Of a stretch of DNA of 64,000 nucleotides, positions 6,224 through 48,837 are shown piece after piece. The DNA comes from an uncultured Alphaproteobacteria bacterium. Lineage in GTDB: Bacteria; Pseudomonadota; Alphaproteobacteria; CADEGL01. The position numbers were made by a program, and so were the translations under genes. Location: positions 10,819 through 74,818 of the forward strand of contig CADEGL010000008.1 in NCBI GenBank assembly GCA_902826885.1. Direction: 5' to 3'. The notes under the pieces are model-generated. The model ran no database searches. It saw only the letters and a program-made list of their open reading frames with translations, and was not told the DNA's origin. The stretch's first letter is position 1. The number at the start of each line of letters is the position of its first letter.

Positions 6224-8419
6224 GTGAACACGACTCCAAGCGCGACCGGAGCGGATGCCGACGCGATTTTCTCGGACGCGCTGGCGCACCATCAAGCCGG
6301 CCGGTTGCGTGAGGCCCAGGCGGGTTACCGCTCGGCGCTGCAAGCCAAGGCTGATCATGCGCCATCGCTTCACTATCTCGGCCTTCTGGCCCATCAAGTG
6401 GGCCAGAACGACCTGGCCGTCTCCCTGATCAGCCGTGCCGTGGCCGCCGATCGGGGCAACGCGCTTTACGCCTACAATCTGGGCGAAGCTTACCGGGCAC
6501 TGGAGAAATTCGAACAAGCCGTTGCGAACTATCGCCAGGCGCTGGCGCTCGATCCTGAACTGGCGGACGCTCATTTCGCGCTCGGCAACGCGCTGTACGA
6601 ACAGAAGCGGGTCGAGGAAGCCATCGCCGCCTACCGGCGCGCGGTCGAACTGACGCCCGACGACCCCGAGGCCTGGAGCAATCTCGGCAATGCTTTGATG
6701 GACCGGAAGGCCCAGGACGAGGCCGGCGAGTGCTACCGCCGCGCGATCAAGGCCGATCCGTCCTATCTGCCGGCCTACATCAACCTGGGCACTGTTTTGA
6801 TCGGCGCCAAGCGGCACGACGAGGCCGTCGCGCTGTTCCGCGGCGTACTCGCGCGCGACGAGCAAGTGCCGGAAGGTCATTACAACCTTGGCAATGCGCT
6901 GTTCGCCCTGCACAAGATCGACGAAGCCGTCGCCAGCTATCAGCGCGCGCTGAGTCTTCGTCCGGGCTTTGCCGAAGCTCATAACGCATTGGGCTTGGCG
7001 TTGCAGAAGCGCAACGATCCCTCTTCGGCAACCGAATCCTTCCTCAAGGCAATCGCGCTCAAGAAAGACTATGTCGAGGCGCACACCAACTTGGGTAGCG
7101 CTCTGGTCGACCTGCGCCGGTTCGACGACGCATTGGGTGCTTTGAACGAAGCGCTGCGTATCAACCCGAGCCACGCCGAGGCGCACAACCAGATCGCTAG
7201 TACCCTGTCCCTTATCGGTCGGATCGACGAGGCCATCGCCAGTGCCCGGCGCGCGCTCGACGCCAAACCAGACTTCGCGGAAGCGCACTACATGATGGGC
7301 GTCCTGGTCGAACAGCAGGGAAAGTTCGACGAGGCCGTGGAATGGCAGCGCAAGGCGCTGGCCCTGGATCCGACGCTGTCGGAAGCCCATTACCATATGA
7401 CATTGAGCGGCCGCGCGACGAAGGAAGGTACTGGCACGGCCGAAATGGAGCGATTGCTCGAAACGGGAAACCTGGACGGCCGCCAGCGCGCGAATTTGCA
7501 TTTCGCGCTGGGGAACGCGGCCGACCATGCGAGCGACTATGAGCGGGCGTTCGAACATTTCCGCGCGGCGAACGATCTTAAGAAAGCCGAAGCGTCGTTC
7601 GACGAAGGCGGCGTGGCTCCCTATGTCGATGCGTTGATCGACGCCTTCGATGCCGACTATTTCGCCGCGCGCCAGAATATCGGCAGCCACTCCGAGCTGC
7701 CCGTCTTCGTGCTGGGCATGCCGCGCTCGGGCACCACGCTGGCCGAGCAGATCATCGCCAGCCATCCGCGCGCGTTCGGCGCCGGCGAGCTGGAGCATAT
7801 GGGCCAACTCACCTCGAGCCTGCCCGAGTTGCTACAGACGCCGGTGCCCTATCCCAAGGCCGCCGAACTGATCGACGCCACCAACGCCAAACGCGTCGCG
7901 GACCATTATCTGACCGCCCTGCGCGAGCGGGCACCCAAGGCCGACCGCATCGTCGACAAGATGCCGCTCAATTTCCTGCGCGTGGGCCTGATCGCGGCGC
8001 TCCTGCCCAATGCCCGCATCATCCACACGCGCCGCGACCCCATGGACACTTGCGTGTCTTGTTACTTTCAGCATTTCGCGCGCGGCTTCCACTTTTCGTA
8101 CGACCTGGCCAATCTCGGCCTCTACTACCGCGAGTACGAGCGCCTAATGGCGCATTGGCACAAGGTTCTGCCCGGCCGCATCCTCGACGTGCAGTACGAA
8201 ACGCTGATTGCGGATCAAGAGGCCGGCATCCGCGAGATTATCGGCTTCTGCGGATTGGACTGGGATTCGCGCTGTCTCGCGTTTCACGAAACCGACCGGC
8301 AGGTACGGACGGCCAGCTTCTGGCAGGTGCGCCAACCGCTTTACGCCTCTTCGGTCGGCCGTTGGCGTCACTACGAAAAACATCTGGGACCGCTGAAGGC
8401 GGCGTTGGGCCGGACATGA
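6224..8419 (+). CDS. TPR-repeat protein fused to a C-terminal sulfotransferase-family domain
   Basis: The N-terminal ~400 aa are TPR units. The C-terminal region has a P-loop-like PAPS-binding 5'-PSB motif (VFVLGMPRSGTT) and IIHTRRDPMDTCVSCYF (3'-PB-like). GTG start. Confidence 0.85.
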   Translation: MNTTPSATGADADAIFSDALAHHQAGRLREAQAGYRSALQAKADHAPSLHYLGLLAHQVGQNDLAVSLISRAVAADRGNALYAYNLGEAYRALEKFEQAVANYRQALALDPELADAHFALGNALYEQKRVEEAIAAYRRAVELTPDDPEAWSNLGNALMDRKAQDEAGECYRRAIKADPSYLPAYINLGTVLIGAKRHDEAVALFRGVLARDEQVPEGHYNLGNALFALHKIDEAVASYQRALSLRPGFAEAHNALGLALQKRNDPSSATESFLKAIALKKDYVEAHTNLGSALVDLRRFDDALGALNEALRINPSHAEAHNQIASTLSLIGRIDEAIASARRALDAKPDFAEAHYMMGVLVEQQGKFDEAVEWQRKALALDPTLSEAHYHMTLSGRATKEGTGTAEMERLLETGNLDGRQRANLHFALGNAADHASDYERAFEHFRAANDLKKAEASFDEGGVAPYVDALIDAFDADYFAARQNIGSHSELPVFVLGMPRSGTTLAEQIIASHPRAFGAGELEHMGQLTSSLPELLQTPVPYPKAAELIDATNAKRVADHYLTALRERAPKADRIVDKMPLNFLRVGLIAALLPNARIIHTRRDPMDTCVSCYFQHFARGFHFSYDLANLGLYYREYERLMAHWHKVLPGRILDVQYETLIADQEAGIREIIGFCGLDWDSRCLAFHETDRQVRTASFWQVRQPLYASSVGRWRHYEKHLGPLKAALGRT

Positions 8420-34691: not shown

Positions 34692-35906
34692 TCAGCCTCC
34701 CGCGGCCGGCCGCGCGCCGAACAGGACCGGCGCGTAAAGGATCGCAAACAGCGCGAAGCCGCCAGCCCACAGGACGCCCGCGGCCGACACCGCGAGAACG
34801 TAATCCAGGCCGAGATAGGGCGCCGCGACGCGCAGCGCCGCGCCCGTCCAGATCAGGACATAGATAGATGCCGTTCCCGCGCCCGCGATCAGTTCCCGCC
34901 CGCTATGTCCCAAGCTCGCACGCGTCATCACCGCCATCGTGAGCAGGCCGATCGCGCCCGCCGTCAAGGCATGCAGGGCGGTGGTCGGATCGGCCCATGC
35001 CGGCGCCAACGCCGCGAGCCCCATCAGTAGGAACGCCACGGGCAGCCAAAGATAGGCGACATGCAGGACGACCAGCAGCGGCTCGGCTAACGTCGCCCAG
35101 CCGCGCCAGCGGGCCAGCCGGATGGCGTGCAAGACACCCGCCGCGGCGAACGCCGATCCTGTGACGACGCCATCGGGGACGAAGATCCATGCCAGGACCG
35201 TCAACCCCGTCCACGCCAGCACGGCCTTGTCATACCGGCCGAACGGCGCGGGCAGACGCTCCGCGTGCCGCTTCTTCAGCCAGTTGACGGTGAAAGAAGG
35301 GATGATCCGGCCGCCCACCAAGGCCATCAGCATGACCGCCACGCCAAGGCCCAGGCGCAGGCCAACCCCGGATAGGGACGGCAGGACGGCCTCGGCATGC
35401 CACAGGACGTTGCCGGCCGCGAACAGACTGACAAGCACGCAGACCGGAAGGTTCCGCCAGTTCTTGCCCGTCAGCACTTCGCGCCAGACGAAAGCGGCCA
35501 ATACGATCAGGAACAAGGCATCCGCCGCGGGGGGCCATGCGGAATCCGGATCGTATTGGCCGCCGCACAGCATGGCGACGCGTCCGGCCAGCCATAGGGC
35601 CACGAAAAAGACCAATGGCCGCCCCGCGATGGGCAACCGGCCGGTCCAGTTGGGGATCGCCGTCATCAAGAAGCCGGCGAGAACGGCGCTCAGATAGCCG
35701 TACAGCATCTCATGCGCGTGCCAGCCGAGCGGGTTTCCCGCATGACCGAGCGAAACGCCGTACCCGAACGCCGCGATCCAAGCAGGAACCGCGCCCGCCG
35801 CGAACAACGCCGCGAGGAAAAAGAATGGCCGGTACCCGTGGCTGAGCACCGCCAGGCGTGCGCCGTTTCGCGATCTCTTGCCATCCGGGCTCATCGCACC
35901 GGCCAT
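34692..35906 (-). CDS. nnrS: NnrS-family membrane protein (NO-response, heme/copper)
   Basis: LSHGYRPFFFLAALFA, multi-pass membrane protein of about 400 aa. Adjacent to nsrR. Confidence 0.88.
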   Translation of the reverse strand: MAGAMSPDGKRSRNGARLAVLSHGYRPFFFLAALFAAGAVPAWIAAFGYGVSLGHAGNPLGWHAHEMLYGYLSAVLAGFLMTAIPNWTGRLPIAGRPLVFFVALWLAGRVAMLCGGQYDPDSAWPPAADALFLIVLAAFVWREVLTGKNWRNLPVCVLVSLFAAGNVLWHAEAVLPSLSGVGLRLGLGVAVMLMALVGGRIIPSFTVNWLKKRHAERLPAPFGRYDKAVLAWTGLTVLAWIFVPDGVVTGSAFAAAGVLHAIRLARWRGWATLAEPLLVVLHVAYLWLPVAFLLMGLAALAPAWADPTTALHALTAGAIGLLTMAVMTRASLGHSGRELIAGAGTASIYVLIWTGAALRVAAPYLGLDYVLAVSAAGVLWAGGFALFAILYAPVLFGARPAAGG

Positions 35907-35957
35907 CCTTCCTCGGCGGAGCGCGCACGCCGCTCCGCCGGACTCTTTACCGCGAAA

Positions 35958-36395
35958 CTAACGCGCGGCCGCCACGATGATGCCTATCGCCATCGTGCCC
36001 AAGGCGATGGCGATCGGTAAGACGGCCACCTGCGCCAGCGCGTCCTTGCCGCCCATGTGGCCGGTATAGGTGTCGATTTCGCCGCGCAGGAATTCCGTGA
36101 ACGTCGACTTCTCAACCCAGGACGGCATCCGGCACAGGCGCATGAGCACAAGCGGCAAGGCGAAATACACCGCGAAGAAGACCGTGGCGACGGCGAGAAC
36201 CAACGCCCCCTCCAGATGGAGGCCGAAGACAAGCCAATAGGTCAGCATGAAAACGAACCAGCCCGACATGCTCACGACGAAGACTCCGGGATGCAGATGC
36301 CGGAAGACGGGCAAATTATGCCCAGCCCCGCCAGAGAGGCGATTCATGGCGTTCCGGGCGGCCGTCGATGTCGTGGCGGTCATCGCATCTTCCAT
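35958..36395 (-). CDS. Small integral membrane protein (3-4 TM), hypothetical; start may be at an internal Met (36383 or 36347)
   Basis: Hydrophobic helices. Lies between nnrS and the NsrR operators. The first ATG abuts operator 1. Confidence 0.55.
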   Translation of the reverse strand: MEDAMTATTSTAARNAMNRLSGGAGHNLPVFRHLHPGVFVVSMSGWFVFMLTYWLVFGLHLEGALVLAVATVFFAVYFALPLVLMRLCRMPSWVEKSTFTEFLRGEIDTYTGHMGGKDALAQVAVLPIAIALGTMAIGIIVAAAR

Positions 36396-36418
36396 AAGTG
36401 GTATTTAAAATACCAATT
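36396..36418. promoter_or_regulatory. NsrR-type operator 1 (11-1-11 palindrome)
   Basis: AAGTGGTATTT-A-AAATACCAATT, 10/11 symmetric. Core ATTTnAAAT as in the NsrR consensus AAGATGCATTTnAAATGCATCTT. Confidence 0.5.
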
Positions 36419-36444
36419 ATGACGGTATTGCCCCGGCGCGAAAA

Positions 36445-36467
36445 AAGCAATATTCAAAATACATCTT
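36445..36467. promoter_or_regulatory. NsrR-type operator 2
   Basis: AAGCAATATTC-A-AAATACATCTT. The right half matches the NsrR half-site at 10/11. It sits 12 nt upstream of the nsrR start codon. Confidence 0.5.
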
Positions 36468-36479
36468 TTTGAGGATTTC

Positions 36480-36950
36480 ATGCAGCTCACCTACCATACG
36501 GATTACGCGCTTCGCCTGTTGATGTATCTCGCGCTCGCGGGTAACCGGCGCGCGACGGTGGAGGATGTCGCTACGTCGTTCGGCATCTCCCGGAACCATA
36601 TGATGAAGGTGGCGCATCGGCTGGGGCGGGCCGGCTATGTCGAGACGATCCGGGGGCGAAGTGGCGGCCTTCGCCTAAAGCGCGACGCGGGGAACATCCG
36701 TGTCGGCGCCGTCGTGCGCGACATGGAGGAAGGCTGGCAGATCGTGGAATGTTTCGATTCCGCGCGGAACACATGCGTGATCGCGGGACCCTGCCGGTTG
36801 AAGGGCGTCTTCAAGGAAGCCCTGGCCGCCTATCTGGCGGTGCTCGACCGCTATACGCTCGCCGACCTCATGGCCAATACCGGCCAACTCGGCCGGCGGC
36901 TCGGGCTCGGTTCCGCGCCCGTCCCAAAGGCCGCCGCGCCGGCATTCTGA
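36480..36950 (+). CDS. nsrR: Rrf2-family NO-sensing repressor NsrR
   Basis: MQLTYHTDYALRLLMYLA..., and three cluster-ligand Cys in ECFDSARNTCVIAGPC. RBS GAGGA. Confidence 0.88.
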   Translation: MQLTYHTDYALRLLMYLALAGNRRATVEDVATSFGISRNHMMKVAHRLGRAGYVETIRGRSGGLRLKRDAGNIRVGAVVRDMEEGWQIVECFDSARNTCVIAGPCRLKGVFKEALAAYLAVLDRYTLADLMANTGQLGRRLGLGSAPVPKAAAPAF

Positions 36951-36980
36951 TCGGGGCGCGCAACGGCCACGATCTTCGCC

Positions 36981-37325
36981 TTACTGCCGGTTCGGCAATT
37001 GCCGGTAGGTGCCCGACGCCTTGACGCCGTCGGCACCCTGCACGGTCACGTCGATGCGCTTGGCCTTGAGGTCGGTGCAGCTTCCCGCTTGGCGGATATC
37101 CGCCTCGCGTGCCTTGTCGGTGTCGGTGACGTAGCGGATTTTGATCGGCGCGCCCTCGCCGTGGCAGACGCGATAGAACAACGGTGGAAATCCGTCGCCC
37201 AAGAGAATGGCCGGATTGTTCGGCGTGGCGACCCAAGTGCCGGTTTGCGAATCGGCGGCTTGCGCGGCCGCGTGGCCCCAAGCCAGCGCGAGACCCAAGG
37301 CAAGAAACACGGACCGGTGGATCAT
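36981..37325 (-). CDS. Small secreted hypothetical protein
   Basis: RBS GGGGAGA. Signal peptide MIHRSVFLALGLALAWGHAAAQA. Two Cys. Confidence 0.55.
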   Translation of the reverse strand: MIHRSVFLALGLALAWGHAAAQAADSQTGTWVATPNNPAILLGDGFPPLFYRVCHGEGAPIKIRYVTDTDKAREADIRQAGSCTDLKAKRIDVTVQGADGVKASGTYRQLPNRQ

Positions 37326-37383
37326 GCGGCATCTCCCCGAGGCGAAGCCGCGATTGTGCGAACCGCCCCACGCCGTGGGCAAC

Positions 37384-37414
37384 AAAAAAAGCCGCGCCCC
37401 GGATGGGGCGCGGC
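37384..37414 (-). terminator. Rho-independent terminator downstream of rpmJ
   Basis: On the minus strand, gccgcgcccc-atcc-ggggcgcggc (10-bp stem) is followed by TTTTTTT. Confidence 0.65.
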
Positions 37415-37457: not shown

Positions 37458-37583
37458 TCAGCCCTGGCGGGCCTTGAAGCGCGGGTTCTTCTTGTTGATG
37501 ACGTAGACGCGGCCGTGGCGGCGCACCACCCGGCAGTTCTTGTCGCGCTTCTTCATCGTCTTCAACGAATTCAGGACCTTCAT
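37458..37583 (-). CDS. rpmJ: 50S ribosomal protein L36 (Cys-less alphaproteobacterial type)
   Basis: Translated by hand: [41 protein letters not shown] (41 aa). RBS GAGGA. It is below the ORF-track size cutoff. Confidence 0.85.
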
Positions 37584-38498: not shown

Positions 38499-38882
38499 CT
38501 ATCCCCGCTTGATTTTCTCGACCGTCCGCAACGCCCCCAGGCCGAGCATTCCCGCCATGAGCTCCCAGAGTCCCGAGTCCAAGGACGGCGGCGGAGGCAC
38601 GGAAATTCCGTTCCAGGCCGCGATCCAAGTGCCGAGCGGTACCAGAAGATACTGATAGGCGAGCGCCGCCGCGCAGCACCAACCGATGGCGGGGCGCCAG
38701 CCGGCGACGAAGAGCGAGGCGTTCTTGGCCTCCTCGGCGTTCACCTCCATCTGCTTCAGATCGGCCGCGGCCAGTTGCGCCAGCGTTTCGCGCAGGGCGC
38801 GCTCGCGTGTGGCGGGGTCGGGCAACACGGCACCCAATACGCGGTCGAGGATGGGCACCAGGGCGGCGATCAGCGCGGGCAT
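38499..38882 (-). CDS. Phage holin (3-TM, GTA-release-type family)
   Basis: The N-terminus MPALIAALVPILDRV... and FVAGWRPAIGWCCAAALAYQYLLVPL resemble the Holin_3TM family. The ATG directly follows the endolysin TAG stop. Confidence 0.65.
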   Translation of the reverse strand: MPALIAALVPILDRVLGAVLPDPATRERALRETLAQLAAADLKQMEVNAEEAKNASLFVAGWRPAIGWCCAAALAYQYLLVPLGTWIAAWNGISVPPPPSLDSGLWELMAGMLGLGALRTVEKIKRG

Positions 38883-39359
38883 CTAGGTCTCCTTATAAGC
38901 GGACAAGAATTTCTCGACCGTGCCCTTGCCACCCGCGTTGTAATGGCGGACCCAATAGGCGGCGAGGCCGGACGCATCGTCCGCGCGCGGCAAGGGCAAC
39001 GGGCACATCCAGTATTTGAGCCGCGCGATGGCGCAGCCGAGGCGGTCATTATCGTAAAGCTGCTCGCCGGGCGTACGGTTGGGCAGCAACAAGCCGTTCA
39101 CGCGGCCGAGCAGCCCTGTGCGCCGCGGCAGATAGCGTCGATAGACGTCGTGGAACGTCGCGGGTTCGATCTGGAACAGCCCGCGCGCGGGACCGCCGCC
39201 GATTTGCCGCCGGTGGACCAGCCTGCTTTCGACCAGCGCCGTGCCGAGCATGAGGTTGGACGCCGCGCGCGAATAGAGGTCGAGCAGGCGCAGGACGGGG
39301 TCGATGACCTCCGCCCGGAAATCGTCGGGATTCATGGTTTGGAAATCGTCTCCAGACAC
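38883..39359 (-). CDS. Phage endolysin (lytic-transglycosylase-like)
   Basis: LGTALVESRL...GLFQIEPATF resembles the SLT catalytic E-S...GLMQ motif. GTG start. Adjacent to the holin. Confidence 0.6.
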   Translation of the reverse strand: MSGDDFQTMNPDDFRAEVIDPVLRLLDLYSRAASNLMLGTALVESRLVHRRQIGGGPARGLFQIEPATFHDVYRRYLPRRTGLLGRVNGLLLPNRTPGEQLYDNDRLGCAIARLKYWMCPLPLPRADDASGLAAYWVRHYNAGGKGTVEKFLSAYKET

Positions 39360-39605
39360 GCGGTCTTGCCGCGCAAATAGCGTTCGAGGATCTCGGCAGC
39401 CTTCACCACGCGCTCGGGCGCAGCACCGCGCGGCGCCATTTCGACGGCGCGCTCGAGCGCGAAGGCGCGGCGGCCTTCCGCCACCGCCTCCTTGGTGAGG
39501 CAGTCCAGGTATTCGCTCATGATGCGAGGAGCTTTCGTCTAAAGAGAGTATCGGTGCGCGACTCTCAAAATTTCCCCTCCCTCGTCGGGGAAGGGTGAAG
39601 TCGGG

Positions 39606-39863
39606 CTACGAGCCGGCCTTGAAGCGCAGCGCGGCGCGCAGGCCTTCCCACAGGAGATAGGCCAAGCCGGACAGCGCCATGCCCATGGCGGCCAGGCGCG
39701 TCTTGCGCGCCAGTTCCTCGCCGCCCATGCGCGTACGGCGCAGGAAGGCGAAGTCGCGCTGAAGGTCGAGGACGGAATCCGGCGCGTTCGCATCGAGTCC
39801 GAGCGTGGTCAGGGTCTCGCGCACCGTCTCGCGCACGATGCGGCGGATGTCGGCTTCGGTCAT
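39606..39863 (-). CDS. Small phage-associated protein with C-terminal TM helix (lysis-accessory or spanin-like)
   Basis: MTEADIRRIVRETV...LAAMGMALSGLAYLLW. It sits between the tail fiber and lysis genes. Confidence 0.4.
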   Translation of the reverse strand: MTEADIRRIVRETVRETLTTLGLDANAPDSVLDLQRDFAFLRRTRMGGEELARKTRLAAMGMALSGLAYLLWEGLRAALRFKAGS

Positions 39864-39873
39864 GACAAAGCTT

Positions 39874-41322
39874 TCAGGCGTCGCGGCCGCGCGGATCGCG
39901 CCAGCCCAGCGTCGCGATGCGGCATGCCACGTCGGCGCCGGAGCGCCGGCGGATCTGCGCGCTGGTATTGGTCCAGATGGCGGCGTTGCCGTGACAGGCG
40001 GTGGCCGTGCCGCCGGTCGATTCGCCGATCTGCGCCAGGGGCCCGGCCGTGCTGCTGGGCGCCTCGTCGTTGATGTCGGGATCGCTGAGATAAAGCCCCG
40101 TGTCGCCGACATAGGCCGACACCATGGCCTTCACCCGCAGGCCCGTGGGCACGGTCATCGTCGCCAGCACGGCGCTGGAACCGGAATTGTTGGTGTCGAC
40201 GTCAAGCGGCGGGTCCTTCCACCAGAACTCGTCGCCGCGCTGGACGAACGTCAACAGATTGCCCGAACCGTCGTTACGCACGGCGCCCAGGCGGCGCTTC
40301 TGCGTATAACCGGACGGCATCGTCGGCGCGGTGGCGCTGGCCGAGAACAGCACATCGACGACCTGCGTCGTCGGATTTCGGATGGCGTAGAGGTGATACC
40401 AGGTGGCGTTGGCCTCCGAGCCCGTGTCGAGTCCGCCCTGGTTGGTACCCGCGGCCCAGGCGGCATCCAGCCGTTTGGTGAGCGAAGCAGCGAGCACGAT
40501 GTTGGCCGCGTTGCCGTCGTCGCGGCAAGCGCCCGCCGCCACGTCGATATCGTTGTTGGCGTCCGAGCCGTTGTTGGACAGCATGAACCCGTCGATCTGC
40601 CCGCGCGGCAGAGGAATCTCCGCCCAGCCGGGATCAGTGCCGTCTGACAGCAGCACCCGTCCCACCGCGCCGACCGCCAGGCGCTGCGGCGCGCTGATAC
40701 CGCGTAGCACCAGGTCGCCGCGCGTGGTCAACACGTTCTTGAGCGCGCCGAGCGTGGCCAGCGCCGTGTCGGCATCCACATCGTCCAGCAGCGTGTTGAT
40801 GAAGGACGAGACAGGCCCCAGATCGGCGCTGGTGCCCGCAGCCGCAATGGCGCGGCCATTGGCGTCGAAGGCCAGGAACTTGGAGGCGCGCTCGACCGAG
40901 GACGGCAGATCGGCACTGAGAGATGTCGCATCGGTGGTCGGGAACTTGACGCTGCGCGCCAGCACTTCCTCGACCTCCTGCACCAGCATCACGGCGCGGT
41001 CGTGCGCCTCCTCGACCGAACCCGATGGGAACGGATCGTTGGGCGTCAGATCCACGCCTTGGGTGCGCGGCAGCACCCGGCGAATCGTCCACTGGACCGA
41101 CGCGGTGGGCGCCACCAGCGCCGTGACCGTGCCGGTTCCCCCGCCGCCGCCCGCGACCGTGTAGTGCGTTTCCAGCACCTTCGGCGTTTCCACGCCGGTC
41201 GCGACCGCGCGCTCGATCACCTGCAGGTCGGCGGCTTCGAAGAAGTTGAACGGCACGGCGAAGGACACGGTGGCGCCGTTGCCGGCATAGGTTGTCTTGC
41301 TGGTCGTGGAAGAGACAGTCAT
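39874..41322 (-). CDS. Phage tail fiber/host-recognition protein
   Basis: RBS GAGGAA. 482 aa rich in Gly/Thr/Ser/Asn. Low-complexity runs (GGGGGTGTVT) and a beta-rich C-terminus. It occupies the position of T7 gp17. Confidence 0.55.
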   Translation of the reverse strand: MTVSSTTSKTTYAGNGATVSFAVPFNFFEAADLQVIERAVATGVETPKVLETHYTVAGGGGGTGTVTALVAPTASVQWTIRRVLPRTQGVDLTPNDPFPSGSVEEAHDRAVMLVQEVEEVLARSVKFPTTDATSLSADLPSSVERASKFLAFDANGRAIAAAGTSADLGPVSSFINTLLDDVDADTALATLGALKNVLTTRGDLVLRGISAPQRLAVGAVGRVLLSDGTDPGWAEIPLPRGQIDGFMLSNNGSDANNDIDVAAGACRDDGNAANIVLAASLTKRLDAAWAAGTNQGGLDTGSEANATWYHLYAIRNPTTQVVDVLFSASATAPTMPSGYTQKRRLGAVRNDGSGNLLTFVQRGDEFWWKDPPLDVDTNNSGSSAVLATMTVPTGLRVKAMVSAYVGDTGLYLSDPDINDEAPSSTAGPLAQIGESTGGTATACHGNAAIWTNTSAQIRRRSGADVACRIATLGWRDPRGRDA

Positions 41323-41352
41323 GGGTTCCTCGTCGAATGGGGGCGCGTTTAA

Positions 41353-41805
41353 CTATTTTTTCCAATGAGCGGCTGCTCTTGACGCGCCGCCCAGAAGCGT
41401 GGAGCCCGCTTCCATGAAGCTCGACTGCATCGCCGCGCGGCCGCGCGTGCGCTGGCCGCCCGCGTCAGCCAAGCGGCCCCAGGATTCGAGCTCACCCCGG
41501 CGGCGCAGCGAGAGCGCGTCCATCTCGGCATCCGAAGCCGTGTCGCCCAGGACGTCGATGGGCGTGCCCTCCAAGGTCACGCCGGCATTGGCGTAACCGG
41601 CGCGCCGGGCGCCCAACGCGCGTTGTGCCTGCTCCCGCGACCGCGCCTCGTCGAAGGCGGCCTGGTCGCGCGCGGCCGCGGCATAGCCCTCGGAAATCGA
41701 GGCGTTGTACTTCGCCATCTTATTGGCCGAGACGCCCTGGGAGATTTGGTTCGCCGCGGTCAGCGCCGTACCCGCGATCATCGCGGCGATTTCGATTCCA
41801 CTCAT
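41353..41805 (-). CDS. T7 gp14-like internal virion protein B homolog
   Basis: The N-terminus MSGIEIAAMIAGTALTAANQISQGVSANKMAKYNAS parallels T7 gp14 (...AAAIPIAISGAQAISGQNAQAKMIAAQTAAG). The ATG overlaps the upstream stop (ATGA). Confidence 0.5.
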   Translation of the reverse strand: MSGIEIAAMIAGTALTAANQISQGVSANKMAKYNASISEGYAAAARDQAAFDEARSREQAQRALGARRAGYANAGVTLEGTPIDVLGDTASDAEMDALSLRRRGELESWGRLADAGGQRTRGRAAMQSSFMEAGSTLLGGASRAAAHWKK

Positions 41806-42245
41806 CTTGTCCTCGCATACAGCCAATAATCTCCTCCGCCGTGCAGCCCATAACGGCGCATCAGCCCTTCGCGCTCGAAACCCAGCGCGCGCAGGAATCG
41901 CGCGCCCGCATCATGGTCCGCGTGACAGCTGGCCTGGATACGGCGCAGGCCTTGCGCGCTCTCCAAATCGGCCAAGCCCCGCATGGCGGCGCGAAACAGA
42001 GCGATGGGGCGGTCCAGCGCCTCGAGCGAGAACACGGCCCAGGCCTCGCCCACGCCCGGCCATAGCGGCCGCACGCCCGCGCAGCCCGCGACGCGCCCGT
42101 CGATCAGGCCGGTGAAGGCACAACCGCGCACGGCATAAGGGTCCAATCGGTCGGCCAGCCAATCGCGGTAAAGCGCCAGCTCCGCCTGCGCCGGCTGCGG
42201 CGCGACACGGCGCAGATGGCGCGGTTCGAACGGAACGATTCGCAT
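41802..42245 (-). CDS. GNAT-fold-like protein in phage structural module (gp13 position)
   Basis: ...GLIDGRVAGCAGV...RFLRALGFEREGLMRRYG... has GNAT-like C-terminal motifs. The start is 1 nt after the gp12-like stop. Confidence 0.45.
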   Translation of the reverse strand: MRIVPFEPRHLRRVAPQPAQAELALYRDWLADRLDPYAVRGCAFTGLIDGRVAGCAGVRPLWPGVGEAWAVFSLEALDRPIALFRAAMRGLADLESAQGLRRIQASCHADHDAGARFLRALGFEREGLMRRYGLHGGGDYWLYARTR

Positions 42246-42246
42246 C

Positions 42247-44277
42247 TCAGCGCTCGTAGGTCGCAAGGCGCGGCATCACGGCCAGAAGCGTGAGCGGCAG
42301 CGGCTGGCTCTGGCGGATGATAATGGTGGCGTCCGCGCCATAGCCGCCGTCGAAGGCCACATACTTGTCACCCGTGAACAAGGGTGGCGCCCGGTCCATG
42401 GCATCTCCGCCGGCGCGGAACAGGATTTCGTCGAGATGCGCTTCGTCCGGGCCGATGCGGCCGCCCAGCGTATCCATGAAACGCAGCGTTACGCCCGCGA
42501 TGCGCTTGACCTGCCCTTGCGCCGTGCCGGCCATCGCGCCCGCTTCGGGGCGCAGGGTCTCGATATCCGTCGGATAGCCGAGCCCCACATGGACTTTGGA
42601 GGCGGGCCGTTGCAGCGCGATGGCGCCGCCCGTCACCACGGCATCCGGATGGGCCGCGCCGTCGGCCAGGACGGAGACGGTCTCGCCTTCCAGATGGCCA
42701 AGGCCGGACACACTTTCCACCGGCGCGCCGTCATAGGTCAGGCCGCAATCGACGAAGAAGGCGTCTGCCTGCACATGATCGCGGGAAAACACTTCTTCCA
42801 TGAACTCGATCGTGCGATGGGTTGCGCCCGCGACGGTGCGCTTCACCGAAAGCCAGAGCTGGTCGTGCCCGCCATCAGGCGACGGGATGACGGAAAGCGA
42901 TTCGACAACCGCCGGCCCGCCCGCGAACGATCCGCCCAGCATATGCCGGTGCCAGCCGATGACCTCCTGCTCGCGCTCGTAGGTCATGCCGAGCAAGACA
43001 CCGTCTTCGCGCACGCACCACAGCACCGGGTCGGGCTCCTGCGCATATTCGACCGCGACAATGCCGGGCCGCGCGATATGCTCGGCCAGAAGGGTCAGAT
43101 CGGGCGCCACGTATTTGTCGCGCTCGAAGGAATAGGCCAGCTCGCGCACCTGGCGGCCTGAGCGGGTGACGAACAGCGTGGCGTCGCCCGCCTCGCGCGG
43201 CGCGAGATCCGCGCAGCCATGGGCGCGATGCCGCCGCGTTTGGACCGTGGTGGGGGTGAGCGGCTGATCCAGCGTGGTCGCGCGTAAGATCCACAAGCCG
43301 CCGACCGTACCGATCTGCAGCACCTGGCCGGGGTTGAGCCAGCGGATGACGTTGACCTGGTTGGCGGCCAGCGTGAAGGCGATGCCGCTGTCGTCCGCCA
43401 CGACGCCGTCCGCGCCGCTCGGCGCCATGGTTTCGAAATCGCCCGATTTGGACGACCACACGGTCTGCGGCTGATGCGTCGAACCGGCCCACCAGAGACG
43501 TTCCTCGAAGAACGTCACCGCGGCGGGATAACCTGTGGTTACGGACCACGCACCCAATCGCCAAACGGCGACAGCGGAGGTGCTGCCGAAGGCCGACTTC
43601 ACATCGGCCGTCACCTGCGTTCCCGAGGTGTAGGCCGTGATCTTGGCGTTGCCCCAGGTCGAGCCGTGCTTGATGCGCACCAAGCGCCCCACGTCCGAGG
43701 CCGCGAACGGACTGTGGCCCGAGGCCGTGATCGTGATGCCAGCGCCTGTGGTGGCCGAGGGCGCCAGCGTTTTTCCTGCGTCCGTGTTCTCGTCGAGATA
43801 CGGCCCATCGAGAAAGTCGATGAGAGACAGGGACCACGACGTATGCGAGCTGCGCGTCAGCTTGCGCGGCGCATGGGACGGGTGGGCAATGTAGAGCGTA
43901 TCGGCCGACTGCGCGAATTTCAGTGCTGGCAGGTCGGCTTCGAGATACGGCGTCGCGATCTCGACCGCCGTGCCCGGTGGCGATTCGATTCGCCCCTCTT
44001 CCATGTAGAACCGGACATACTGATCGCCGAACTCCAGCACATAGGCCTGGGTAGTCGAGAACTCGAACGGCGCCAGGCGCACCGCTTTGGCATCGGTTTT
44101 GACCGGCGCGACAAATCTTGTGCCCGAGCGGCGCGCGATCGGCCCCTGCAAACGGACGATGCCGTTCAGAATCGTCTTGGCCGCGACCGCGTAAGGGCCT
44201 AGATCGACGCGCCCCTGCAGCAAGGGCGAAATCTCGCCGCGCGCGAAAGACGCCTGGATGGGATTGGCCTTGGGCAT
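42247..44277 (-). CDS. T7 gp12-like tail tubular protein B homolog (or other large tail/baseplate protein)
   Basis: RBS AGGAA. The N-terminus PKANPIQASFARGEISPLLQGRVDL resembles gp12 (ALISQSIKNLKGGISQQPDILRYPDQ). 676 aa. It is in a cluster containing a gp11-like gene. Confidence 0.5.
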   Translation of the reverse strand: MPKANPIQASFARGEISPLLQGRVDLGPYAVAAKTILNGIVRLQGPIARRSGTRFVAPVKTDAKAVRLAPFEFSTTQAYVLEFGDQYVRFYMEEGRIESPPGTAVEIATPYLEADLPALKFAQSADTLYIAHPSHAPRKLTRSSHTSWSLSLIDFLDGPYLDENTDAGKTLAPSATTGAGITITASGHSPFAASDVGRLVRIKHGSTWGNAKITAYTSGTQVTADVKSAFGSTSAVAVWRLGAWSVTTGYPAAVTFFEERLWWAGSTHQPQTVWSSKSGDFETMAPSGADGVVADDSGIAFTLAANQVNVIRWLNPGQVLQIGTVGGLWILRATTLDQPLTPTTVQTRRHRAHGCADLAPREAGDATLFVTRSGRQVRELAYSFERDKYVAPDLTLLAEHIARPGIVAVEYAQEPDPVLWCVREDGVLLGMTYEREQEVIGWHRHMLGGSFAGGPAVVESLSVIPSPDGGHDQLWLSVKRTVAGATHRTIEFMEEVFSRDHVQADAFFVDCGLTYDGAPVESVSGLGHLEGETVSVLADGAAHPDAVVTGGAIALQRPASKVHVGLGYPTDIETLRPEAGAMAGTAQGQVKRIAGVTLRFMDTLGGRIGPDEAHLDEILFRAGGDAMDRAPPLFTGDKYVAFDGGYGADATIIIRQSQPLPLTLLAVMPRLATYER

Positions 44278-44342
44278 GGGAGTTTCCTACAAAAGCACAT
44301 GAAAAAGCCGCGCGGGCTTATGCGGCGCGGCGGGAGGAGCGG

Positions 44343-44753
44343 ATGGATATTCGGAATTACGAAAGTCGGGACAGGACCGCCGTGATCGCCCTATGGCAGG
44401 CGTGCGGCCTGGTTGTGCCGGGCAAGAACGACCCCGAAGCCGATATCGACTTCGCGGTTGCCAGCCAGGATGCGGAAGTTCTCGTCGGCGTGGTCGACGG
44501 CAAAATCGCCGCGACCGCGATGGTTGGCCACGACGGGCACCGGGGCTGGCTCTACTACGTCGCCGTCGCGCCCTCGCGCCAGAAATCCGGCTTGGGCCGG
44601 GAGATGGTCGAGGCCGCCGAAGAATGGCTGCGCCAACGCGGCGCGCCCAAGGCCCAGCTCATGATCCGCGAAACGAATACGCAAGTGGAGGCGTTCTACG
44701 CGAGGCTGGGCTACGCGACGATACCGCGCATCGTGATGCAGAAGGCGCTATAG
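44343..44753 (+). CDS. GNAT-family N-acetyltransferase
   Basis: RBS GGGAGGAG. Acetyl-CoA motif VAVAPSRQKSGLGREMVEAAEEW. It lies opposite to the flanking phage genes. Confidence 0.85.
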   Translation: MDIRNYESRDRTAVIALWQACGLVVPGKNDPEADIDFAVASQDAEVLVGVVDGKIAATAMVGHDGHRGWLYYVAVAPSRQKSGLGREMVEAAEEWLRQRGAPKAQLMIRETNTQVEAFYARLGYATIPRIVMQKAL

Positions 44754-44769
44754 GCACTATAATACCGCC

Positions 44770-45198
44770 ATGCGAAAGCCGGACCCTCTATGGCAGAGAA
44801 TCGCATTCGTCGTCGGGATCGGGCTGTTTGCCGGTGTGATGAAGTTCATAGCCCGGGATGCATCCGATTGGATTGCTTTCGGTGCACCGGCCTGGGACGC
44901 CGCGCTCGCGATATTCCTGTTCTGGATGCAGCTGGCGCCGGTCGTCGCGGCCGGCATTTGGATCAACGAGCGGCTTAAGTCGGGCCAAACGACCCAGAAG
45001 CAGGTGGACCGATTCTGCAGAATTCTTTTGCCCGCCGTATTAGTCCCCCTCGCTTATGACTTCTTCCACTCCTTCAAGATGTCCGCCGACATGCAGGCAA
45101 TATTTTTAGCCGCGATCTGCGTGTGGGCGTTGTTTGCGTTGTGGGTGACGGGTCAGTTCACCGCGAAAAGCCCTGCTCCGCCCGGCGCGGAAAGGTAG
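44770..45198 (+). CDS. Hypothetical 4-TM membrane protein (lower-GC, likely horizontally acquired)
   Basis: Four hydrophobic helices. Local GC about 55-57% with A/T-rich codons (ttt, tta, ata), atypical for the window. Confidence 0.45.
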   Translation: MRKPDPLWQRIAFVVGIGLFAGVMKFIARDASDWIAFGAPAWDAALAIFLFWMQLAPVVAAGIWINERLKSGQTTQKQVDRFCRILLPAVLVPLAYDFFHSFKMSADMQAIFLAAICVWALFALWVTGQFTAKSPAPPGAER

Positions 45199-45205
45199 AG
45201 CACAC

Positions 45206-46288
45206 TCACTTTCCGGACCGTACCTTCTCGACCTCGTCGCGAGCGCTTTGGTAAGCCTCGATCGCGTCGTGAATATTTACGCCCTTCCACGCCAGCTTCA
45301 GGGCAGGCGGTGCGAGCGCAACCAACTTATCGATGCCAAACGCCTTGTCCTCAGCTGAATCTAGAAGCACGTCTCCTATCACTTTCTTTATGACGTACAG
45401 GCTCAGTTCCCGATCAGCCTGCGCCAGCTGTTCTTGCGACTTAACATCATTCGGATCGACATCGAGCGCCTTCTTGGCGGCCCAGTAATCCTTTCCGATG
45501 TTTTCCGGTGTCCTCGCCTCTCGTGGTTCGCCAACGTTCTGAACGTCCTTGTACCGATCACGATCGGCCGCGATGACTGCGGCATCCGGAAAGCCGAACG
45601 CTTGGCCCGCGCGTTTGATGTCCAGCGCGGACTGCGCGCGCACCCTGGGGGCGGGTTTTGGGCCGGCCTCATGGCGCCAGCCTTCACGCGCGCGTTGTTC
45701 GAATGCCTCGCGATCCGCCGGCACGCCATCGGGCGCTCCGAAGCCGTTCCCCATGGGCATTTTCGGCATGATCTCGACCGTAAATCGATCCATCGCCGCG
45801 GCCGGATCGGCTTCCAGGCCGAAGGCGTGGGCGCGATGCGCCTCCAGCGCGGCTTGCCGTAGGATTTCGTTTCGCGGGTGGCCGTCGCTGGCGCGGGCCA
45901 ATCGGCCAAGCTCCTCTATGCGCGCCTGATAGGCTTCCTGAAGCGCCGCACGCTCGCGTACATCATTCTCCCGCTCGAAGGCGGCGGCATGGGTGTCGGC
46001 GAGAGACGTGAAATCACGCAGGAACAACGCGCGGCCGGTTCGGTCGTCGGCCAACCCGTCGGCGAGTTGCCGGCCGATGGCTTCGACCTCGTCGCGGAAC
46101 CGGCCGGGCGCCGCGGCCCAATCCGTGGCTTGGCCGAAACGTGCCTGCAAATTGCCGAGCGTCCGCGCGGCGCTTGCCGAGGTTTGCAGCAGGCGTCCGT
46201 ACCGGCGCCGCGCTTCCGTGTCGTCGAGCAAAGCCGGCGCGCTGGGTGCGGCTTGCACGATATCCTCGGGCACAATGATGGTGGACAT
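45206..46288 (-). CDS. Phage hypothetical protein (scaffold/internal-protein-like, helical, charged)
   Basis: Strong RBS GAGGAGAAAAG. It follows the gp11-like gene. The 3' third has lower GC. Confidence 0.5.
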   Translation of the reverse strand: MSTIIVPEDIVQAAPSAPALLDDTEARRRYGRLLQTSASAARTLGNLQARFGQATDWAAAPGRFRDEVEAIGRQLADGLADDRTGRALFLRDFTSLADTHAAAFERENDVRERAALQEAYQARIEELGRLARASDGHPRNEILRQAALEAHRAHAFGLEADPAAAMDRFTVEIMPKMPMGNGFGAPDGVPADREAFEQRAREGWRHEAGPKPAPRVRAQSALDIKRAGQAFGFPDAAVIAADRDRYKDVQNVGEPREARTPENIGKDYWAAKKALDVDPNDVKSQEQLAQADRELSLYVIKKVIGDVLLDSAEDKAFGIDKLVALAPPALKLAWKGVNIHDAIEAYQSARDEVEKVRSGK

Positions 46289-46297
46289 CTTTTCTCC

Positions 46298-46867
46298 TCA
46301 CAACCGCGCCAGCAGCCATTCCTCGGCGGTCAGCACATCCGGCGTTCCTTCCTGCGCGTCCGCCGTCCGCGCCTCCGCGAGCTTGCGTTCATAGAGGAGC
46401 CGCATGGCTTCCCCCATGGACGAACTTTGCTTCAGCGGCTCGGCCAGCTCCGCCGCGAGCCGCGCGGCAAGCGCTTCGCGAAACAGGGCCGGGAATTCGT
46501 TGGGGTCGGTGACACGCCGCAGATAGAGCACGCGCAGGGGCGCGCCGGCGTCGGTCAGGATGCGGCGGCCCTCGACCTTCCATTCAGCTTCCGTGTCCTC
46601 GAGACGCAGAACACGCAGGCAATAGTCGGGCGACGTCGGCAGCGGATAGGCGTTGGCGTAGCCCCAGACGGGCGAGGCCGCGTCGGCCGCGAGTTCGGCG
46701 CGCGCCAGCGCGAAGTTCCAGGGATGCGCCTGGATCACCGAATCGCGCAGCTCGTCGAAGACGGCGTGGGCCAGGCGCGCGGGCTTGGCGCCCTCGGATA
46801 AAGACGTGATGGTCGCCTCGCCGAGCTTGATCAGCGCGGCGTTGACGATGCCGACGGTGGAGGCCAT
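46298..46867 (-). CDS. T7 gp11-like tail tubular protein A homolog
   Basis: RBS AGGAG. The N-terminus VNAALIKLGEATITSLSEGAKPARLAHAVFDELRDSVIQAHPWNF parallels T7 gp11 ([46 protein letters not shown]). Confidence 0.7.
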   Translation of the reverse strand: MASTVGIVNAALIKLGEATITSLSEGAKPARLAHAVFDELRDSVIQAHPWNFALARAELAADAASPVWGYANAYPLPTSPDYCLRVLRLEDTEAEWKVEGRRILTDAGAPLRVLYLRRVTDPNEFPALFREALAARLAAELAEPLKQSSSMGEAMRLLYERKLAEARTADAQEGTPDVLTAEEWLLARL

Positions 46868-46929
46868 CGGTCGCTCCTATGGTTTTTGGGAATAAAAGAC
46901 GTGCGGAGGCGGTAAAGGCGCGGGCGCGG

Positions 46930-47160
46930 TCAGACGCGCTCGCGGCAATAGGCCTGGATTTCTTCGGCCGAGAACGCGAGGCCGTCCGGCCCCTCGACGC
47001 GCAGCACCGTGCCGCCGCGCGCAAGCGTACGGCAGGCGAAGAACAATGCACCGTCGAGATTCGGAAAACGAACCGTCTCGGCCCCGGCGTTGCCCAACCG
47101 CGCGAATTGCTCCGGCGCGGCGCCGGAATATTGGACGAAGAAACGCCAGGCTTCGGTCAC
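46930..47160 (-). CDS. Small hypothetical protein in phage module
   Basis: 76-aa ORF collinear with flanking phage genes. No recognisable motif. Confidence 0.3.
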   Translation of the reverse strand: MTEAWRFFVQYSGAAPEQFARLGNAGAETVRFPNLDGALFFACRTLARGGTVLRVEGPDGLAFSAEEIQAYCRERV

Positions 47161-47360
47161 ACCCTGCTCACCCCGCGGTTGAAATCCGCATGTGCCGTGC
47201 CTGAGCGACGGAGCGCATCGGTGGGGCTTGCCGGCTGGACGCCGGTTTGGTTGGCCGTCTTAGTGGCAAACTTATCCGCAAAATCCGGGCCACGTGCCGG
47301 GCGGATTCCCAGAGAAAAGCGCGGAAATCCGCCCGACATCAAGGGAACGGGACGGCGCGC

Positions 47361-47867
47361 CTAGTTCCCGGGCATCACCACCTCGATGTCGAGGCTGATG
47401 GTGCCGCCGGTGGAACCGACCGTGTTGCCGGTCAGCGCCAGGTCGTACCAAAGGTTCGGATCGGACGAGAGGCCGGCATCCTGCCAGACCTTCTTCTCGA
47501 CGTTGGCGACGTCGCGGGCCTCGAAGCCGATCTGCACACCGGCCGTATCGGCCGAGGCCAGCGAGACAGCGGAGGCATAGGCGTCGGCGTCCACCACGGC
47601 GCCGCCGTCCACAGCCGTGCGGTAAAGGCCGAGATCGTAGCTGGTACCGCCGGTGACCGCGTCGTGAAACTTGCGCACGCCTTTCACCAGCCAGGACGAA
47701 TGAACCCGTGCCATGCGGTAGACCGACCCGTCATTGTCCGAGGCACCCTGCTCCACCGTCGCGCGCAGGCATTTCACCTTGCCGCCCGCGATCTGGAGGT
47801 CGTTGAGCACCTGGGGGCTCGCGTCGGCGTTGGCGACCGACGCGCTTTTCGTATTGACCACTGCCAT
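47361..47867 (-). CDS. Phage structural protein (possible decoration/minor capsid protein)
   Basis: RBS GGGAG. 168 aa, beta-rich. Immediately downstream of the capsid-like gene. Confidence 0.45.
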   Translation of the reverse strand: MAVVNTKSASVANADASPQVLNDLQIAGGKVKCLRATVEQGASDNDGSVYRMARVHSSWLVKGVRKFHDAVTGGTSYDLGLYRTAVDGGAVVDADAYASAVSLASADTAGVQIGFEARDVANVEKKVWQDAGLSSDPNLWYDLALTGNTVGSTGGTISLDIEVVMPGN

Positions 47868-47973
47868 TGGAAAAACTCCCGATGAGGATGAAGGAAATCC
47901 GGCGCGGCGGAGCCGTGGCGGCGGGTGGTCCCGCCTTCGTCCACCGACGATGCGGCGGCCGCGCCGGAAAGGG

Positions 47974-48837
47974 TCAGGCTTCGGTGCAGAGGATCTCGAC
48001 CACGGATTTTTCCTGCATCCGGACGGCCCCGATCGACATGCTGAAATAGACCTGCATGGCGTAGGACTTGTCCGGCCGGTCGGAGATGTTGGCCTTCACG
48101 TCCTTGCCGATGGCAAGCAGCAGGCCCGATTTGCGCCAGGCGATGCAGCGCCGGTTGCCCGACGAAGTGCCGAGACGCTGGGTGCGGACGAACTTGAAGC
48201 CCAGGAACGTATCGATCTCGCCCCGCGCCAAGGCCTTGACCGTGTTGTAGTCGGCGCTCTTGACCTCCGTCGTGTTCAACAGATTGGTCACCTGTTTGGC
48301 CGAACAGGCCACATAGCGCGGCTCGTCCGGGTCGTTCTCCTCGGCATCGAGCAGCTCCTTGGCCGAGAGAAGCTTGGCCAAGGTCATGCCCGAGGCGGAC
48401 GCGCCCACCTGCATGCCGGAATCGAACGGCGTCGCGACTGAGCCTGTCTCTCCGGTGTAGGCGGTGGCAAAGGACGCAGCGATCAAAACATCGTCGATCG
48501 CCCGGCCCATGGCCGCGGCCGCGCCCTCCTGATAGGGCGAGGTGAACTCGTTCAAGGTGCGGACCTTGTCCTGGTCGTCGACCAGGTCGGCCCATTCGTA
48601 GTCGACCAAGGTGACGCGGCGCCGCGCGTGCGGCGTGTCGATCTGCGGCGTGTCCGCGTGGCGCACGAGGCGCGGCACGGCGGCGGTGATGCCGATCTGG
48701 TCGAAATAGGCGTTCTTGGCGTGGACGCCCGTCTCCACCCGCACCGCATCGCGCAGCCGGCTACCCTTCTGTTGGACGAGCAGCTCGACGCCCGAGCGGT
48801 ACTGCTGGACGAACGAAGTCGTGATTTGGGTGCTCAT
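47974..48837 (-). CDS. Putative phage major capsid protein (HK97-fold-like)
   Basis: RBS GGAGGG. 287 aa. First gene of the collinear structural block. The call rests on position and composition only. Confidence 0.45.
   Translation of the reverse strand: MSTQITTSFVQQYRSGVELLVQQKGSRLRDAVRVETGVHAKNAYFDQIGITAAVPRLVRHADTPQIDTPHARRRVTLVDYEWADLVDDQDKVRTLNEFTSPYQEGAAAAMGRAIDDVLIAASFATAYTGETGSVATPFDSGMQVGASASGMTLAKLLSAKELLDAEENDPDEPRYVACSAKQVTNLLNTTEVKSADYNTVKALARGEIDTFLGFKFVRTQRLGTSSGNRRCIAWRKSGLLLAIGKDVKANISDRPDKSYAMQVYFSMSIGAVRMQEKSVVEILCTEA

Follow-up and report, generated by a model that had tools for sequence, protein, structure and literature searches.

Background

In Escherichia coli and Salmonella, the operators of the nitric oxide (NO) stress regulator NsrR (ytfE, hmp, ygbA, hcp) are inverted repeats of the form AAGATGCATTT-n-AAATGCATCTT, in which two 11-nt arms flank a single nucleotide (11-1-11). 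The same 23-bp geometry is found in the locus described here, which lies in a stretch of 64,000 nucleotides (the window) from an uncultured alphaproteobacterium (GenBank assembly GCA_902826885.1, contig CADEGL010000008.1, positions 10,819 to 74,818 of the forward strand). In beta- and gammaproteobacteria nnrS is a recurrent predicted member of the NsrR regulon and is sometimes clustered with nsrR, whereas Rodionov et al. (2005) detected virtually no NsrR orthologues among the alphaproteobacterial genomes of that time and assigned nnrS to NnrR control (PMC1274295). Streptomyces coelicolor NsrR (ScNsrR) regulates its own gene through a full inverted repeat (PMC4432287), and its operators are graded in affinity and NO sensitivity (PMC9338935). 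Asp8 is the fourth ligand of the [4Fe-4S] cluster in NsrR (PMC5411485). RirA has a conserved Asn8, whose substitution by Asp leads to NsrR-like behaviour and loss of iron sensing (PMC10510648). The 19-bp motifs of Magnetospirillum NsrR are highly degenerate and were of no use here (PMC11014258).

In the window, a 96-bp region (36384-36479) divides an Rrf2-family gene, nsrR, on the plus strand from a divergent pair on the minus strand, a small membrane-protein gene and nnrS. This region contains two boxes of 11-1-11 type, termed site 1 (on the side of the small gene) and site 2 (proximal to nsrR). An initial annotation, made from the sequence, had described both the setting and the boxes, and the box sequences and coordinates that it gave proved to be exact (Table 1). 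The comparisons presented below make it likely that the locus is an NsrR-governed NO-stress module, in which the repressor would bind the two operators and control nsrR as well as the small-gene/nnrS unit. No earlier description of an alphaproteobacterial two-box layout was found in the literature, in a survey of incomplete coverage that left out RegPrecise.

Identity of the regulator

The product of the plus-strand gene belongs to the Rrf2 family (Pfam PF02082, 3e-35, residues 4-133; TIGR00738, 117 bits with a cut-off of 73). Its best match in the Protein Data Bank (PDB) is ScNsrR (5N07, 1.2e-20), with IscR at ~1e-6. Residues D8, C91, C99 and C105 align with D8, C93, C99 and C105 of ScNsrR, thus at the sequence level the full set of cluster ligands is present. 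The recognition helix begins with SRNHMMKVAH, which is close to SRNHMVKIIN of E. coli NsrR (checked in the MG1655 record). When the regulator was used to scan genome and metagenome collections, 50 loci were obtained (designated by L numbers). All of the 50 extracted Rrf2 relatives have (T/S)-D-(Y/F) at positions 7-9 and three Cys. They share Asp8 with the window protein, and the Asn8 typical of RirA did not occur among them.

Among the NCBIfam models, NsrR (NF008240) was the best family, but its score of 135.6 bits is below the equivalog cut-off of 182, and the RirA model (NF008886) scored 125.5 bits (cut-off 193), only 10 below the NsrR score. Both values count against the assignment to NsrR, and because the equivalog cut-off was missed, the tree, residue 8 and the operator motif had to be considered too. 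The two scores, each under its cut-off, would also fit a protein that is not an NO sensor but a RirA-like or other Fe-S regulator of iron or redox, with the boxes as its operators, and so would the spacing of the cysteines (C-x7-C-x5-C here, C-x4-C-x5-C in E. coli NsrR) and the occurrence of relatives of the small protein beside ferritin-like or DUF305 genes (see below). However, the regulator has Asp8, the very residue that abolishes iron sensing when it replaces Asn8 of RirA (PMC10510648). Moreover, the boxes match the NsrR motif, as seen in their cross-recognition with the ytfE and hmp operators (see below), and not the IRO box (TGA-N9-TCA), and the neighbouring targets are NnrS and truncated haemoglobin, not iron uptake genes. 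A function of the RirA kind is, on this evidence, very unlikely. With NsrR as top NCBIfam family, ScNsrR as best PDB match, and Asp8 together with three Cys, the regulator is, as judged from its sequence, of the NsrR type as annotated, even though it fails the equivalog model.

Similarity of the boxes to NsrR operators

In the 11-1-11 register site 1 (AAGTGGTATTTAAAATACCAATT) is complementary at 10/11 and site 2 (AAGCAATATTCAAAATACATCTT) at 7/11 arm positions. Site 2 combines a canonical right arm, ATACATCTT, with an invariant, non-canonical left arm, AAAAGCAAT. Palindromy was rejected as evidence: in block shuffles that preserved local composition, a window contained 1.25 ± 1.2 palindromes with 10/11 or more complementary positions, and at least one was present in 70% of the shuffles. 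The case for the boxes is made by motif identity, position and conservation.

A search of the whole window with the E. coli consensus AAGATGCATTTnAAATGCATCTT, allowing up to three mismatches, gave no match, and a position weight matrix (PWM) derived from the clade was therefore used instead. Sites 1 and 2 have 7/22 and 6/22 mismatches to the E. coli consensus and rank third and first, respectively, in the window. The likeness to this consensus is only moderate and falls short of what the initial annotation had implied, for site 1 in particular. In 64 kb, AAATRCATCTT occurs as a perfect half-site just once, in the right arm of site 2.

For the symmetrised PWM, gene-distal boxes were taken from 13 distant relatives, to the exclusion of the window, its three closest relatives and any information from E. 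coli. Applied to the 64 kb, it ranked site 2 (29.5 bits) first and site 1 (16.0 bits) second, followed by a third match of 7.7 bits. With a PWM made from the proximal boxes, site 2 was the best match in the window (40.5 bits). The maximum score in whole-window shuffles had a mean of 6.0 (sd 3.6), the highest of 200 being 16.4 bits, and in shuffles of the intergenic DNA only, the 99.9th percentile was 15.9 bits. The score of site 2 is far beyond chance.

The same PWM was also run on E. coli K-12 DNA. In 40 kb the single outstanding match, at 34.7 bits with the next at 4.6, was AAGATGTATTTTAAATGCATCTT, which lies 27 nt upstream of ytfE; in 30 kb it was AAGATGCATTTGAGATACATCAA, located upstream of hmp, at 18.7 bits with the next at 5.3. 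These two sequences are the classical E. coli NsrR operators. Since a PWM from alphaproteobacteria only recovers the ytfE and hmp operators as its unique top matches, the boxes of the clade are NsrR boxes, as the initial annotation had proposed. The score of site 1 is about that of the functional hmp operator. Operators with 11-1-11 geometry of the AAGATGyAT-N5-ATrCATCTT type thus stand beside the target genes. Two other kinds of site were tried and discarded, an NnrR/FNR-type site formed by TTGC...GCAA, for which the spacing is N15, not N4, and the RirA IRO box, which is not present in the boxes.

Conservation of the two-box layout

The close relatives L001 (82% regulator identity; identical to L020 and L021), L022 (76%) and L027 (73%) share with the window the divergent small gene and the two boxes. 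L002 (63%) has no divergent gene and the proximal box only. At 47-58% identity the two-box plan was present in Fodinicurvata (L003), in metagenome-assembled genomes (MAGs) of Pseudolabrys (L004-L007), in Robiginitomaculum (L010) and in soil metagenome contigs (L028, L029, L031, L033-L038, L051, L056). The layout spans relatives whose regulators are 47-82% identical, unclassified alphaproteobacterial MAGs included. Many of the remaining Rrf2 loci, which form separate neighbour-joining branches, do not have it, and some of them carry a single NsrR-like box elsewhere.

In the distant relatives the distal box is near-canonical (e.g. AAGATGTATAGTCCATACATCTT or AAGATATATTTAATATACATCTT), and the proximal box has the form AAAAGCAATAT-N5-ATACATCTT and lies 12-28 nt before the nsrR start (20 loci). 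A six-way alignment shows invariant boxes and an invariant TATTG block, but no conservation of the GC-rich spacer. Pairwise identity in the close subclade was 0.75 for site 1, 0.83 for site 2, 0.60 for the spacer and 0.59-0.71 for third codon positions of nsrR. Although the site 1 sequences diverge, their palindromy is at least 8/11 in 4/4 subclade members, and both arms have moved from ATGyAT to (T/A)(G/A)GyAT. This shift possibly reflects a weaker operator by design, or the input of a second paralogue. Both boxes are thus conserved in relatives at orthologous positions. A proximal box precedes every nsrR of the clade that was examined, including that of L002 with its missing divergent gene, which agrees with the autoregulatory role assigned to site 2 in the initial annotation.

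The genes next to the boxes are of NO-detoxification or NO-stress type: nnrS in the window, and truncated haemoglobin, NnrS and a TehB-like gene in relatives. L003 has a divergent truncated-haemoglobin gene, and NnrS downstream of nsrR; in L010 it is truncated haemoglobin that follows nsrR downstream.

Some relatives showed additional features. The metagenomic locus L022 encodes two NsrR-like paralogues 1.5 kb apart (1380-2372 and 3430-4426; 141 aa and 156 aa, 44% identical), each with its own pair of boxes; a globin and a TehB-like gene are arranged divergently to the second one. In Fodinicurvata fenggangensis (L003) a third NsrR-type box, AAGATGGATGCGGTATGCATCTA (6548-6570, 18.5 bits), lies between two divergent ORFs ~2 kb downstream of nsrR-nnrS. 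In loci of the Pseudolabrys type, the gene abutting the distal box encodes a conserved membrane peptide of 57-58 aa (MSGSTSLGATLARTFLYPGD...KRELVRMLVNSLVWIV...) and is followed by a truncated-haemoglobin gene; the peptide is short and easily overlooked in annotation.

The small membrane protein and its start

The ORF-finder start of the small gene abuts site 1, and the initial annotation had suggested that either the true start is downstream, or repression acts by occluding the promoter or 5' end. Homologues of the protein are 139-141 aa long and align from the second Met. The first ATG has no Shine-Dalgarno (SD) sequence of its own and is part of the conserved TCCAT|AAG, where the SD adjoins the box. 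L001 lacks this ATG, and in L022 it is out of frame with a stop. At the position equivalent to the GGAAGA of the window, L001, L027 and L022 have GGAG or GGAGG. From the starts of the homologues and the placement of the SD, the gene therefore most likely begins at the second ATG and encodes 141 aa, with the coordinates given in Table 1. Since site 1 abuts the SD of this gene, the divergent promoter would be located to the right of site 1, and site 1 would cover the transcription start or early leader. Both options of the initial annotation appear to hold.

The protein gave no match in Pfam or NCBIfam. Its AlphaFold2 (AF2) model consists of three long helices, predicted at a low confidence (pLDDT 60), and it has a conserved F-x2-F-L-R-G-E-I-D-T-x-T-G motif. 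An exhaustive profile search (E <= 1e-3) collected 757 cluster representatives in the family, and no Pfam domain was detected in the members scanned, remote ones included. Some homologues precede DUF305, and one is fused to a ferritin-like domain (P0138, a single case); these associations hint at a metal-related role of the family.

Proposed control of the divergent genes

In the proposed mechanism, a [4Fe-4S]-NsrR dimer would bind two 23-bp (11-1-11) operators in the 96-bp divergent region. Bound to site 2, 12 nt before the nsrR start and over or beside the promoter, it would exert negative autoregulation, and at site 1, over the start or early leader of the small-gene/nnrS operon, it would block RNA polymerase, perhaps with the help of site 2. 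Nitrosylation of the cluster by NO would release NsrR from the DNA and derepress both units, whereupon NnrS and its membrane partner would be made.

The left arm of site 2, AAGCAAT(A), forms an inverted repeat with the TATTGC element. Their spacing is constant within a class: N15 in the class of the window (the spacing to GCAATA is the same in the window, L001, L027 and L022) and N6 in the Pseudolabrys class. One hypothesis reads these elements as two promoters, one for nsrR (TTGCCC-N17-TATTCA, plus strand) and one for the small gene (TTGCTT-N17-TACCGT, minus strand), which would overlap completely in divergent orientation, with the TTGC elements as -35 boxes. The invariant AAGCAA in the left arm of site 2 would then double as the -35 of the divergent promoter (TTGCTT, minus strand). 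L002 is the sole locus with a changed left arm (AAGCGAT) and the sole locus without a divergent gene; this coincidence, a single case, fits the dual constraint. A more far-reaching version is rather doubtful: two fully overlapping, back-to-back promoters might be closed simultaneously when a single NsrR dimer occupies site 2, site 1 acting as an additional lock, and the 141-aa protein might be a hitherto unrecognised NO- or metal-stress membrane partner of NnrS, from a Pfam-less family of about 750 clusters tied elsewhere to DUF488, DUF305 and ferritin-like domains. The N6 class argues against overlapping promoters, as it needs a poor -10 (TACATC).

Evaluation of the proposed control

Apart from the NCBIfam scores (see above), several observations weigh against control by NsrR through two operators. 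The left arm of site 2 is non-canonical throughout the clade: the outer AAG and the inner TAT are kept, but ATG is changed to CAA. A strict sigma-70 scan of 35800-37100 found 0 promoters, and the geometry of repression is conjectural. Repression, binding, NO response and promoter positions are all inferred from sequence. Homologues of the small gene also occur after DUF488 without NsrR boxes (L023-L026, L062), with a divergent DUF6306 gene upstream, therefore NsrR control of the small gene would be lineage-specific.

Site 1 is the weaker of the two boxes. By score alone it is marginal (16.0 bits, with a shuffle maximum of 16.4), and it is carried by position and conservation; each of its arms deviates from the canonical sequence at two positions (AAGTGGTAT vs AAGATGYAT). 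Conceivably, site 2 is the sole functional NsrR operator, and site 1 is weakly bound, serves a second NsrR-like paralogue, or is a promoter or leader element. In line with this, site 1 scores at the upper edge of the shuffles, its arms (nGGyAT) are like those of AATAGGTAT (16.9 bits), the distal box that belongs to the second NsrR-like paralogue of L022, and that relative has its two paralogues close together. On the other hand, the E. coli hmp operator, which is established by experiment, scores similarly with the same PWM, the relatives invariably have a box here, in most cases a canonical one, and both arms of site 1 have changed symmetrically with retention of palindromy, as expected for a site read by a dimer. 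The window ORFs examined did not reveal a second Rrf2 gene, although no search was aimed at one. A functional site 2 alone is thus unlikely, and site 1 probably is the second operator.

The base composition also has to be taken into account. The GC content of the window is 64.6%, and that of the boxes with the intergenic stretch (36396-36479) is 35%, the sole AT-rich part of the neighbourhood, which favours matches to AT-rich motifs. Could the palindromes have arisen by chance in a divergent promoter region rich in AT, with no operator function? About one 10/11 palindrome is expected by chance per 64 kb, and the low GC content inflates matches to an AT-rich consensus. However, the boxes occupy the same positions across alphaproteobacterial orders, whereas the intervening spacer shows no conservation, and shuffled intergenic DNA reaches 15.9 bits only at the 99.9th percentile, compared with the 29.5 and 16.0 bits observed. 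An origin by chance is extremely improbable, and, as far as sequence comparison can tell, the comparative data effectively refute it. Two NsrR operators, one for each transcription unit, remain the preferred reading.

Organization of the locus

The features of the locus are listed in Table 1. The distal gene of the minus-strand pair encodes a full-length NnrS (Pfam PF05940, 2.3e-107, residues 20-399, model positions 2-371 of 371), and the order small gene followed by nnrS is repeated in L001, L020 and L021. In the 51-bp gap between the two genes (35907-35957) the PWM scan found no NsrR-type box, and nearby terminator-like hairpins are weak only; co-transcription of the small gene and nnrS is therefore likely. 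A scan of the whole window (1-64000) with Rfam at the gathering threshold detected no RNA family, which rules out a known riboswitch or leader as an explanation.

Table 1. Features of the nsrR-nnrS locus (window positions) and of a peptide gene in related loci (positions in the respective locus)
Feature	Position	Strand	Description
nnrS	34692..35906	-	404-aa haem-copper membrane protein; distal gene of the presumed small-gene/nnrS operon
Small membrane-protein gene	35958..36383	-	141 aa, three predicted helices; ORF-finder start 36395 corrected to ATG 36383
Small-gene Shine-Dalgarno GGAAGA	36388..36393	-	4 nt 5' of ATG 36383; overlaps the non-conserved first ATG (36393-36395)
Site 1	36396..36418		AAGTGGTATTT-A-AAATACCAATT; predicted operator on the small-gene/nnrS side, abuts the small-gene SD
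TATTGC element	36426..36431		inverted repeat with GCAATA (36447-36452); candidate nsrR -35 (TTGCCC)
Site 2	36445..36467		AAGCAATATTC-A-AAATACATCTT; nsrR-proximal predicted autoregulatory operator, 12 nt upstream of the nsrR start
nsrR Shine-Dalgarno GAGGA	36471..36475	+	read from sequence; 4 nt 5' of ATG
nsrR	36480..36950	+	156-aa Rrf2-family, NsrR-type [Fe-S] NO-sensing repressor (predicted)
57-58 aa peptide gene	L004 3727-3900, L005 3731-3904, L007 3722-3895; also L029, L033, L034, L036	-	

Downstream of nsrR, the minus strand carries a 134-aa ORF without a family match (36981-37385), followed by a gene for a ribosomal protein L36 paralogue (37458-37583), which was identified from a Pfam Ribosomal_L36 match at the equivalent position of L020 and from reading of the window ORF. 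A phage- or gene transfer agent (GTA)-like cluster of structural genes, also on the minus strand, begins 1.5 kb downstream of nsrR (38499-48837). It includes GTA_holin_3TM (38499-38882, 1.3e-17) and Phage_capsid_2 (47974-48837, 7e-89), with several large ORFs without Pfam match between them. L020 likewise has a GTA_holin_3TM gene near nsrR.

Comparison with known systems

The results would allow the annotation "Rrf2 family regulator" to be replaced by NsrR for a whole alphaproteobacterial clade. They also provide a portable operator model, a distal canonical box combined with a proximal AAGCAAT-N9-ATrCATCTT, with which regulons could be predicted in alphaproteobacterial MAGs from soil and marine sources. 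The family of three-helix membrane proteins and the 58-aa peptide of Pseudolabrys are placed in a predicted NO-responsive regulon, which is a first functional handle on them.

The regulator shares with NsrR of E. coli and Salmonella the family, Asp8, three Cys, a near-identical start of the recognition helix and NO-stress targets. In contrast to the locus in the window, nsrR of E. coli has no target gene divergent to it and lacks a proximal box (no second high score near nsrR, L058). Site 1, unlike the E. coli operators, has T5 changed to G in both arms, and the window protein differs from E. coli NsrR in Cys spacing and scores below the gammaproteobacterial equivalog cut-off. The module would operate in the manner of the predicted nsrR-nnrS clusters of beta- and gammaproteobacteria, from which it differs by its alphaproteobacterial clade, the divergent layout and the extra small membrane-protein gene.

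ScNsrR (targets hmpA1, hmpA2 and nsrR; structures 5N07 and 7B0C) is similar in having a small regulon with autoregulation through a full 11-1-11 site (PMC4432287), and its graded operators (PMC9338935) are a plausible parallel to a strong site 2 and a weaker site 1. It is unlike the system in the window in operator sequence, in its targets, which are flavohaemoglobin genes and not nnrS, and in having no single divergent region with two operators. RirA is the nearest alphaproteobacterial Rrf2 paralogue by hidden Markov model (HMM) score and also has three Cys; it differs by Asn8, a fragile iron-sensing cluster and the IRO box (PMC10510648, PMC5863699), whereas the window protein has Asp8 and NsrR-type boxes.

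Taken together, the locus is an ordinary, well supported example of the known NsrR design, and the accepted picture of NsrR is unchanged. What is new here is the alphaproteobacterial clade, a conserved arrangement of two operators between divergent genes in which the proximal box is a hybrid, and the extra membrane-protein cargo.

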